DNA from: a virus
Taxonomy: Duplodnaviria; Heunggongvirae; Uroviricota; Caudoviricetes
Length of the DNA stretch: 17,644 nt
Reading direction: 5' to 3' (one strand)
Virus record (IMG/VR): IMGVR_UViG_2737471835_000010
Coordinates: 1-17,644 of that record
The notes beneath the pieces are model-generated. The model had not been told where the DNA came from. It did not search any database and saw nothing but the letters and a program-made list of their open reading frames with translations. Position 1 is the first letter of the stretch; the number at the start of each line of letters is the position of its first letter. This document shows, in pieces, positions 13,649-15,111 of the stretch. A program made the translations under genes and the position numbers.

Positions 13649-13876
13649 ATGTTAACCAGAAGGGAAAAAGACATGCTAAAACAGCAAGATATGACAGAAA
13701 CCGCCGCCGCAGTCCTTCATTTCTTACCTGCTGACAAGTGGGTAACGCCACGCATGATGACGAGAACTACCGGAGTAAGCGAAGCCCGGTGCCAGTTAAT
13801 ACTGACTCAGTTAGTTCTGGCGGGGCTGGCGAAGGATAACGGCGGGTACGGGAATAAATTCAGACGCTGCCAGTAA
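13649..13876 (+). CDS. Hypothetical small protein (possibly a winged-helix DNA-binding protein)
   Basis: ORF downstream of tR'. The alternative ATG at 13673 has AAGGGA 7 nt upstream and may be the true start. No recognised family. Confidence 0.4.
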   Translation: MLTRREKDMLKQQDMTETAAAVLHFLPADKWVTPRMMTRTTGVSEARCQLILTQLVLAGLAKDNGGYGNKFRRCQ

Positions 13877-14026
13877 TGGCGGTTTCCTGCTGTGAAAATG
13901 GGCGGCTGGTGGGTGTTGGTAGCACCTGCCAGCCATTCGCTCATGCTTACTGGTCACAAGCGAACCACGGCCCACTGCTTTAGCGCAAAAGCAGAGTGAG
14001 CCTACCAGAGTTACGCTTACTGATCC

Positions 14027-15079
14027 ATGAAAAATACTGTAAAAATAAACAGTGTTGATTTAATCAACGCTGATTGCCTGCATTTTATTCAGTCCCTGCC
14101 TGATGATTCCATTGACCTGATTGTTACCGATCCGCCGTACTTCAAGGTGAAACCCAACGGCTGGGACAATCAGTGGAAAGGGGACGAAGATTACCTTAAG
14201 TGGCTGGACCACTGTCTGGCCCAGTTCTGGCGGGTGTTAAAACCTGCCGGAAGCCTTTACCTGTTCTGTGGGCATCGCCTGGCATCTGATATTGAGATCA
14301 TGATGCGTGAACGTTTCAACGTGCTTAACCATATCATCTGGGCGAAGCCGTCCGGACGTTGGAATGGGTGTAATAAAGAAAGTCTGCGCGCATATTTTCC
14401 TGCCACAGAGCGCGTTCTGTTTGCTGAACATTACCAGGGGCCATATCGCGGCAAAAGTGACGGCTATGCAGCAAAAGAAAGGGAACTCAAACAGCACATA
14501 ATGGCACCGCTGATATCGTATTTCAGGGATGCTCGTGCCGAACTGGGTATAACGGCAAAACAAATTGCCGAAGCCACAGGTAAGAAAAATATGGTTTCCC
14601 ACTGGTTTGGTGCCAGTCAGTGGCAGTTGCCGAATGAGGCTGACTATCGGAAGTTACAGGCACTGTTTTCCCGTATAGCGGCAGAGAAGTTTCAGGAACA
14701 ACAACTGGAACAACCACACCACCAGCTGGTGGCATCTTATGATTCACTGAATCGTAAATATTCTGAATTGCTGGATGAGTTTAAATCTCTCCGGCGCTAT
14801 TTCTCCGTATCAGTCTCCGTGCCTTATACCGATGTCTGGATGCATAAACCCGTTCAGTTCTACCCGGGGAAACATCCGTGTGAGAAACCGGCGGATATGC
14901 TCAGGCAAATAATCAATGCCAGTAGTCGACCAGGTGATCTGGTTGCTGATTTTTTTATGGGATCCGGTTCCACAATAAAAGCAGCAATGGCGCTGGGGCG
15001 TCGGGCCTTAGGTGTTGAGCTTGAGTCAGAGCGGTTTAATCAGACAGTGAAAGAGATAAACGAGCTGGTGGGGAAATAA
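14027..15079 (+). CDS. DNA methyltransferase, beta-class amino-MTase (probably N6-adenine), orphan
   Basis: Motif IV DPPY (LIVTDPPYF) near the N-terminus and motif I FxGxG (DFFMGSGST) near the C-terminus, the order typical of beta-class N6A/N4C methyltransferases. No restriction endonuclease partner is adjacent. Confidence 0.9.
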
Positions 15080-15085
15080 TCTGGT

Positions 15086-15111
15086 GGCCACGTCAGGTGG
15101 CCTTTTTATTT
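15086..15111 (+). terminator. Intrinsic terminator-like hairpin (GGCCAC-GTCAG-GTGGCC followed by TTTTTATTT) after the methyltransferase
   Basis: Read directly from the sequence, 7 nt after the methyltransferase stop and upstream of the holin. Confidence 0.55.

Follow-up and report, generated by a model that had tools for sequence, protein, structure and literature searches.

The methyltransferase gene discussed here lies between the gene for the late antiterminator Q and the lysis genes of a lambdoid prophage, in a DNA stretch of 17,644 nucleotides (nt) that was analysed at its full length (IMG/VR virus record IMGVR_UViG_2737471835_000010, positions 1 to 17,644) and that we refer to as the window. 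Its closest described relative is M.EcoGII, a beta-class prophage enzyme of 349 amino acids (aa) from E. coli O104:H4 C227-11 that methylates adenine at N6 in any sequence context (Murray et al. 2018, PMC5778455). M.EcoGII and the related M.EcoGI are not expressed in the native lysogen, where they leave no methylation signature, and constitutive clones grow slowly; the authors proposed that M.EcoGII is switched on during prophage excision, to beat restriction (PMC5778455). In vitro M.EcoGII is active on single-stranded DNA too, as well as on DNA:RNA hybrids and, weakly, on RNA (PMC5778455), its RNA activity being about 100-fold below its DNA activity (V0 0.12 vs 11.1; Suppl. Table S3 of PMC11551740). 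The protein has been modelled as a Rossmann domain (residues 1-134 and 260-349), a charged linker and a four-helix target-recognition domain of the helix-turn-helix type (160-237) (PMC11551740).

The window was originally predicted to carry a small open reading frame (ORF) and a 350-aa beta-class methyltransferase between Q with its terminator tR' and the holin gene, and both are indeed there (Table 1). The methyltransferase matches PF01555 over residues 29-341 (E 2.2e-42; 145.9 bits, cut-off 26.7), and the DPPY motif (aa 35-38) precedes FMGSG (aa 310-314), so that motif IV comes before motif I as in beta-class enzymes. It is colinear with M.EcoGII over the full length, with 281 of 349 residues identical (81%), 90% similar and two 1-residue gaps, the M.EcoGII reference having been machine-read from Suppl. 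Table S1 of PMC11551740 with the possibility of a few errors. The central region (about 135-260) aligns to M.EcoGII without gaps and is conserved across 21 homologs. The window allele belongs to a branch other than that of M.EcoGII, with identities of 99% to database cluster P0121 and of 83% to P0127; RefSeq protein WP_000799656.1 is encoded by identical DNA, and the copy in Stx2c phages, which carry Shiga toxin (Stx) genes, is 87% identical. Reconstructed ancestors far more distant from M.EcoGII retain non-specific activity (PMC11551740). We conclude that the gene product is a member of the M.EcoGII family, for which the activity of the 81% identical enzyme is predicted.

The gene is in a late operon downstream of a PR'-like promoter and tR', and on this account we expect it to be expressed late only. 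We suggest as the best explanation of the locus, and as a probable one, that an ortholog of M.EcoGII and M.EcoGI is made late under Q and hypermethylates progeny DNA as a broad form of anti-restriction. The enzyme would be produced once Q lets RNA polymerase pass tR' and the weak hairpin over the small ORF's stop codon, and then, further on, the one beyond the methyltransferase gene. It would then hypermethylate replicating phage DNA ahead of packaging, and the progeny DNA would reach the next host already protected against the many restriction enzymes of Types I, II and III whose action is blocked by adenine methylation, while the lysogen would escape harmful genome-wide methylation. As a hypothesis, the native leader RNA described below may gate translation or stability of the first late cistron. 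Both the dependence on Q and the anti-restriction benefit are what we infer for this gene; the original prediction had likewise tied it to Q and lytic induction and favoured anti-restriction, in agreement with the proposal made for M.EcoGII (PMC5778455). The M.EcoGII papers cited here make no mention of a setting behind Q and tR', of a winged-helix gene or of a leader RNA.

Several points weigh against this explanation. The dependence on Q is read from the position of the gene, and 19% of the residues are not those of M.EcoGII, including some in the target-recognition domain; the function of the window allele is a predicted one. The absence of a Shine-Dalgarno sequence, together with the structured leader, could mean that very little methyltransferase is made. 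There is a 9-of-12 promoter match inside the small ORF at 13731-13758, and a weak internal promoter is compatible with our scan of 12600-16400, which gave 3 promoter-like sites against 4.6 expected by chance, none of them directly upstream of the methyltransferase gene. In the M.EcoGII papers cited here the anti-restriction benefit of the family is put no higher than likely. Finally, nucleases of Type IV that depend on N6-methyladenine (m6A) cut M.EcoGII-modified DNA (PMC11037411), and since hypermethylated DNA is a substrate for them the benefit would depend on the host. With regard to a promoter of its own, active in the lysogen, the silence of M.EcoGI and M.EcoGII speaks against one (PMC5778455).

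The action of M.EcoGII on single-stranded DNA, RNA and DNA:RNA hybrids in vitro (PMC5778455), and the gene's position after a structured RNA that has conserved A.C and C.A mismatches, as well as invariant adenines, in its helices, could be taken to mean that the main substrate is RNA or single-stranded DNA, and that the enzyme serves phage development, for example by marking late transcripts or replication intermediates, and not anti-restriction. We consider this unlikely, given the low RNA activity of M.EcoGII cited above and the finding in viral contig L089 (3291-4464) of the same leader followed by an unrelated methyltransferase, of the C5-cytosine DNA type (PF00145, E 1.5e-41), and then by lysis genes, which fits protection of DNA. 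With a C5-type enzyme in the place of an M.EcoGII-type enzyme, late-expressed methyltransferases are thus recurrent cargo at the slot behind the leader.

The original prediction also allowed for an epigenetic role in the lysogen. We regard it as very unlikely that the gene encodes a sequence-specific orphan methyltransferase acting as a regulator like Dam, CcrM or M.BceJIV, as M.EcoGI and M.EcoGII leave the native lysogen without a methylation signature and are harmful if constitutive (PMC5778455), and the gene is behind two terminators in a late operon. It is true that the closest solved structure by sequence is that of the orphan regulator M.BceJIV (8urk, E 3e-24), that among NCBIfam models the YhdJ equivalog PRK11524 comes nearest and that the RefSeq protein is named 'site-specific DNA-methyltransferase', and a site-specific enzyme would be the suggestion from the PDB and NCBIfam searches alone. 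However these matches are confined to the catalytic core of the site-specific enzymes M.BceJIV, M.RsrI and YhdJ and miss about 165 residues in the centre, the NCBIfam score of 110 bits falls short of the cut-off of 292, and the suggestion is overruled by the full-length match to the non-specific M.EcoGII. M.EcoGIX (target SAY), which was a first candidate, is according to the literature plasmid-borne and unrelated. As the M.EcoGII family is non-specific no recognition motif is expected; the REBASE comparison proposed earlier to predict a target site would return 'A' and no motif, and the earlier proposal to take the lack of a new methylated motif as refutation was mis-specified.

It is scarcely credible that the gene is the remnant of a restriction-modification system that has lost its endonuclease, or an inactive relic, as although the best PADLOC models are for 'Type II methyltransferase', the same orphan layout is shared by 80 loci at the species level and by 1704 E. 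coli genomes, the ORF being intact and the catalytic motifs invariant, and the surveyed neighbours are mostly Q and holin genes. The lack of an adjacent restriction enzyme had been recognised before, and in the window neither the ORFs nor Pfam nor PADLOC, which gives methyltransferase models only, revealed a nuclease next to the methyltransferase. The adjacent cognate endonuclease by which a Type II restriction-modification system is recognised is thus absent, the neighbours being a 67-aa winged-helix ORF and the holin gene.

The 80 loci come from a scan of one genome per species and are all in Enterobacterales, with amino-acid identities of 62-93%. A large upstream ORF could be picked for 49 of them, and in 43 it encodes either a Q protein (30 loci; PF06530 in 14, PF03589 in 10 and PF06323 in 6) or a DUF1133 protein (13 loci); a BsuBI/PstI-type nuclease was found upstream in 1 of the 49. 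Downstream, the next ORF is a holin gene in 35 of 63 loci, with at least five holin families represented, and in the rest it is other cargo; no nuclease was found among the downstream neighbours of these 63. With Q proteins of three families upstream and holins of at least five downstream, we conclude that the module is a mobile cassette that enters the Q-to-lysis junction whatever the type of Q or holin. In 4 of the 63 loci the gene right after the methyltransferase encodes a Tad2-like Thoeris anti-defence protein, and other downstream neighbours in this set (L006-L085) include DUF7823, protein kinase and cold-shock protein genes as well as toxin-antitoxin genes such as HicA and ParD-like ones. 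The Q-to-lysis junction thus has the look of a hot spot for cargo, of counter-defence and other kinds.

Within E. coli the stretch 13420-15143 is matched in 1704 of 5426 complete genomes, 1104 of which hold at least 80% of it, and in 37 phage records, including Ayreon (99.5%), mEp460 (99.2%), the cdtI phage (98.7%), SfV (96.2%) and fifteen Stx2c phages (90.6%). The module is already known and very common, and its enzyme family has been characterised. In SfV the small ORF is orf47 and the methyltransferase gene orf48, and SfV, Ayreon, E. coli strain F3 and phiNP are annotated with the same arrangement as the window. The order in a Stx2c phage is Q, a 141-aa ORF, small ORF, methyltransferase, tRNA-Met, tRNA-Arg, and stx2c A and B, and in Stx2c phages the module of winged-helix gene, leader and methyltransferase is immediately upstream of the tRNA and toxin genes. 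The statement that this is the slot where Stx phages carry their toxin genes holds. In contrast to the Stx2c phages, the window gave no tRNA gene in a search for them.

Ayreon, mEp460 and the Stx2c phages differ from the window in having about 676 bp inserted between tR' and the small ORF. The insert contains the 141-aa ORF (2781-3206 in L001, 4281-4706 in L004), which has no Pfam match, with a terminator of its own; in the mEp460 record one feature beneath the match bears the label 'porin'.

Table 1. Positions in the window of the methyltransferase module and of the genes and signals around it
Feature	Position	Strand	Details
Integrase gene	2276-3262	minus	
Q antiterminator gene	12667-13419	+	Pfam PF03589 Antiterm, E 6.7e-53; PHROG 127, anti-termination protein Q-like
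PR'-like late promoter	13451-13479	+	TTGCGT-17-TAAGAT, read by eye from the sequence
tR'-type intrinsic terminator	13523-13551	+	-13.9 kcal/mol, z = -4.0, then UUUUUUU
Small winged-helix protein gene, 67 aa from the most likely start	13673-13876	+	PHROG 331, function not assigned, E 3e-26
Weak terminator-like hairpin over the stop codon of the small ORF	13863-13886	+	Followed by UUUCCUGCU; -11.9 kcal/mol, z = -1.65
Structured late-leader RNA, 135 nt	13892-14026	+	5' motif GUGAAAAUGGGCG 13892-13904; P1 13904-13934; P2 13936-13964; P3 and extension 13969-14002
Methyltransferase start region, no Shine-Dalgarno sequence	14014-14029	+	CGCUUACUGAUCC-AUG
Predicted M.EcoGII-family beta-class DNA adenine-N6 methyltransferase gene, 350 aa	14027-15079	+	PF01555 N6_N4_Mtase; DPPY 14129-14140; FMGSG 14954-14968
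Intrinsic-terminator-like hairpin between methyltransferase and holin genes	15086-15111	+	GGCCAC-GTCAG-GTGGCC and TTTTTATTT; terminator scan; -12.2 kcal/mol, z = -2.4
P21-type holin gene, the next late gene	15147-15362	+	PF04971, E 2e-35; dual start MKSM; essD in the annotation of identical DNA

The position of the PR'-like promoter agrees with that of the late promoters annotated just 3' of Q in HK620 and P22, and it was not called by the consensus promoter scan. A transcript from PR' that ends at tR' would be about 65 nt long. This RNA (13486-13551) folds into two hairpins (-21.7 kcal/mol, z = -3.1) and is located where other lambdoid phages have an RNA of the StxS/6S type, with no Rfam family found for it. 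Matches to the Trp and Leu leaders of Rfam at 13442-13552 are under the cut-offs and reflect merely a hairpin with a U-run.

The hairpin and T-run right after the methyltransferase gene, which had been noticed in the original prediction, were found again by terminator scan and by folding, and the SfV and Ayreon records have terminators annotated at the same three places as in the window, including the tR' site and the 3' end of the methyltransferase gene. Hairpins 5-9 nt past the methyltransferase stop codon, with differing stem sequences, are present in 27 of 60 related loci, and a terminator at this place is therefore frequent and not obligatory. Two traits of a moron are present, a terminator of its own (hairpin and T-run) and absence of the insertion from syntenic relatives, as viral contigs L116 and L137 and phages lambda, P22 and HK620 have no methyltransferase gene. 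However, as Q-modified polymerase would read through it, the hairpin marks the boundary of the module and not the end of an independent transcription unit. The idea of a discrete inserted module needs refinement in two respects, as the terminator is present in only part of the related loci and the 150-nt spacer within the module is native leader and not cargo.

That spacer, the gap between small ORF and methyltransferase gene, is of 147-154 nt in most species-level loci and about 140 nt in Providencia and Morganella. Its final 135 nt or so are conserved even where there is no small ORF, and in those loci a clear hairpin and U-run terminator directly abuts the leader. Viral contigs L116 and L137 have divergent copies that are flanked by a PF03589 Q gene and a holin gene, with no methyltransferase gene there. 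A covariance model of the leader (R1), which has a single match in the window (13879-14029, + strand, 162.9 bits), also matches Pantoea phage PA-1 (42 bits), lambda at 45006-45124 between orf-64/tR' and S (L208 1207-1325; 30.2 bits), P22 between t-late and gene 13 (L209 1567-1685; 28.0 bits) and HK620 after the annotated tQ and before S (L206 1522-1669; 24.2 bits). For lambda, P22 and HK620 the model was run with filters off in a 14-kb search, giving E values of 6e-6 to 2e-4. The matches in these three phages and PA-1 are at the same relative position and have in common a GUGAAA..GGGYGG motif and hairpins P1 and P2 (GGUCACGAACAAA), and in lambda P1 looks like a terminator because it is followed by GUUUUG. 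In lambda, P22 and HK620 the matches are on the same strand and in the same relative position, between the late terminator and the first late gene, in stretches that carry no annotation in the records. The scores are modest, and the case for homology is made mainly by the agreement in position and strand. With divergent copies that directly precede holin genes, and these weaker matches at the same position, we conclude that the leader is the native late leader of these phages, with the methyltransferase gene inserted between leader and holin gene and the small ORF between tR' and leader.

The structure of the leader was assessed in a sequence-only MAFFT alignment of 58 distinct leaders. For the fold of three hairpins, P1, P2 and P3 with an outer extension of P3, 87.5% of the cells of the alignment can pair, as against 31-39% when the partners are slid by 1-3 columns, and 16 pairs have changes on both sides, a number reached in 0 of 500 shuffles. 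When copies from viral contigs were added by means of the covariance model, giving 72 distinct sequences, 24 of 33 pairs had double-sided changes, in an alignment that is fitted to the model and so biased towards the structure. G.U pairs are frequent on the + strand, and RNAalifold independently finds P1, P3 and a long-range UGGGC:GCCCA pairing. The alternative that the stems are operator palindromes for the winged-helix protein is not tenable: they stay complementary while the sequence changes, the frequent G.U pairs of the + strand would be A.C on the other strand, and the element is also present in loci without the winged-helix gene. Nor is the spacer a promoter with TGTGAAAAT as an extended -10, as the number of A residues varies among loci and the register is not kept.

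In Rfam 15, scanned at gathering-style and at permissive thresholds, there is no leader match with E < 1 in 13300-15400, the only matches in 13850-14060 being chance-level ones on the opposite strand (E 3-10). The prophage small RNAs AgvB, AsxR and STnc100, which are Rfam families that like Pas come from the same neighbourhood in other phages, have no match at the locus in the window. The ~100-nt spacers of the Xenorhabdus and Photorhabdus loci (L059-L084) are missed by model R1. These loci keep the winged-helix gene, and of the leader their short spacer still has GUGAAAUGG.CGG, together with a P1-like hairpin and CAUUCGCCUGU, and none of the other parts.

The leader also has the potential for alternative pairings. 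The 5' motif, AUGGGCG, is invariant and has two complements: CGCUCAU in the P2 5' strand, with 98.9% of cells able to pair and compatible changes on one side only, and GCCCA 3' of P2, for which both sides change in one sequence (L024); RNAalifold favours GCCCA as the partner and single-sequence folding favours CGCUCAU. A further pairing, of CGCUU..UGAUC at the start codon with GRUCA..AAGCG from the P2 3' strand, is possible in 83-97% of cells, with double changes in four pairs, in a part where the alignment is uncertain. The register of minimum energy from a single sequence for this pairing is contradicted by 16 A.C cells, and a GRUCA:UGAUC register fits better, with changes that are one-sided only. 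The UGAUC at the start includes a GATC (Dam) site directly 5' of the methyltransferase start (CTGATCYATG; 14019-14029), which is kept in 56 of the 58 leaders, including those of Providencia and Morganella; the same GATC is the proposed partner of GRUCA in P2. The alternating pairings would fit a leader that closes or opens the start region, as would suit a toxic gene, and this is put forward as a hypothesis and not as proof of a switch.

We offer as a tentative proposal, with the odds somewhat against it, that the 135 nt are a hitherto undescribed and widely conserved riboregulator of the lambdoid late leader, in which alternative pairing of the 5' motif, by opening or closing a start codon that has no Shine-Dalgarno sequence, gates the first late cistron's translation or stability. 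Methyltransferases of the M.EcoGII and C5 types would then have been inserted repeatedly behind it, the toxic enzyme inheriting the control, and the winged-helix protein may be part of this. No described structure or processing site of the lambda late leader was found in the open-access literature. RNase III sites and tandem terminators were reportedly mapped in the lambda late leader by Daniels et al. in 1988 and by Luk and Szybalski in 1983, and these may coincide with the leader element. Our confidence that the leader RNA is undescribed is thus moderate at most.

The small ORF was first read as a 75-aa frame at 13649-13876 on the + strand. The ORF is real but the length is not upheld, the most likely start being at 13673, which gives 67 aa, because the N-terminus MLKQQDMTE is conserved, RefSeq starts the identical DNA there and there is an AAGGGA 9 nt upstream; 13649 has no ribosome-binding site. 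The protein is in no Pfam, NCBIfam or PADLOC family, and some of its database relatives bear the name 'TrmB family transcriptional regulator'. An AlphaFold2 model (predicted local distance difference test score, pLDDT, 86.9) is a minimal winged helix of the form H-H-H-beta-hairpin, and Foldseek finds with it many winged-helix domains, including those of TrmBL2, IclR, Rrf2, SelB and PefI. The best superposition over the whole domain is on the Zalpha domain of ADAR1 (1qbj), with a template-modelling score of 0.83, a root-mean-square deviation of 1.1 A over 63 columns, 16% identity and E 8e-3. In ADAR1 Zalpha an Asn and a Tyr in the recognition helix and a Trp in the wing contact Z-DNA. By inspection, helix 3 of our protein is SEARCQLILTQLVLAGL and the wing is GGYGNKFRR, and while the fold of about 65 aa fits, the signature residues that contact Z-DNA are absent and a Zalpha domain is rejected. 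It is also not the C protein of a restriction-modification system, as it is a winged helix and not a five-helix Xre fold, with no HTH_3 match in Pfam.

The small ORF is upstream of the methyltransferase gene in 55 of 78 informative species-level loci and is absent from those loci that have the leader without the methyltransferase gene, so it travels with the enzyme and not with the leader. It may act as a regulator, may modulate the enzyme, or may read or shield m6A-DNA.

For the remainder of the window, the gene order is integrase, cI and cro, replication genes, RusA, KilA-N, DUF968, Q, P21-type holin, DUF1327/YdfR, lysozyme and Rz, with DUF1327, lysozyme and Rz being Pfam assignments 3' of the holin gene, and the overall G+C content is 47%. 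In E. coli strain F3 identical DNA adjoins tRNA-Ser and mtfA. Between that end of the prophage and the integrase gene, window positions 1-2252 have a G+C content of 33.5% and contain three overlapping + strand ORFs of 350, 145 and 265 aa, none of which has a Pfam or PADLOC match; they are cargo without an assigned family, in a place where defence systems are often found in prophages. At the other end, at 16878-17357 and 17345-17644, two ORFs follow one another in different frames; the first matches the N-terminal half and the second the C-terminal half of the Rha regulatory protein family (PF09669), which suggests a frameshifted rha gene.

The value of the locus is that it gives an explicit setting for the M.EcoGII family, namely a place in the late operon 3' of Q and tR', with terminators on either side, as a rule next to a winged-helix gene, and in Stx2c phages immediately before those for the toxin. 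A homolog of the window's enzyme is sold as a reagent and used in chromatin footprinting. The late slot would account for the silence of the enzyme in lysogens, and the setting predicts that the DNA of Stx2c-type phages will be hypermethylated upon induction. The more novel material is beside the methyltransferase, in the covarying late-leader RNA and the winged-helix partner, and if the leader, with its weaker matches in lambda and P22, is indeed undescribed, it would be a regulatory element so far overlooked in the phage operon that has been studied best.

In comparison with known systems, the enzyme is most like M.EcoGII and M.EcoGI (also Fang et al. 2012), being beta-class, prophage-borne, 350 against 349 aa and 81% identical, and by homology it would be expected to share their non-specific adenine-N6 methylation, silence in the lysogen and toxicity. 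With M.BceJIV (target GTWWAC) and YhdJ it shares the Rossmann catalytic core, DPPY and FxGxG, but just residues 9-115 and 282-335 align, our enzyme carries some 165 additional aa in its central part, where M.EcoGII is modelled with the charged linker and the target-recognition domain, and the other two are site-specific. Mu-like prophages have at the mom position promiscuous adenine methyltransferases of the Hia5/M.HaeV type (Drozdz et al. 2012, as cited in PMC5778455), and from that account these enzymes are similar in being late-expressed, prophage-borne and nearly non-specific, with broad anti-restriction, and different in being alpha-class in motif order, unrelated in sequence and from another type of phage. 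As a locus, the closest are those of SfV, mEp460, Ayreon and the cdtI phage, with 96-99.5% DNA identity over 13420-15143, and SfV and Ayreon have the same order of terminator, small ORF, methyltransferase, terminator and holin. In Stx2c phages tRNA genes and stx2c stand where the window has the terminator after the methyltransferase gene, while in lambda, P22 and HK620 the leader lacks P3 and the next gene is that for the holin.

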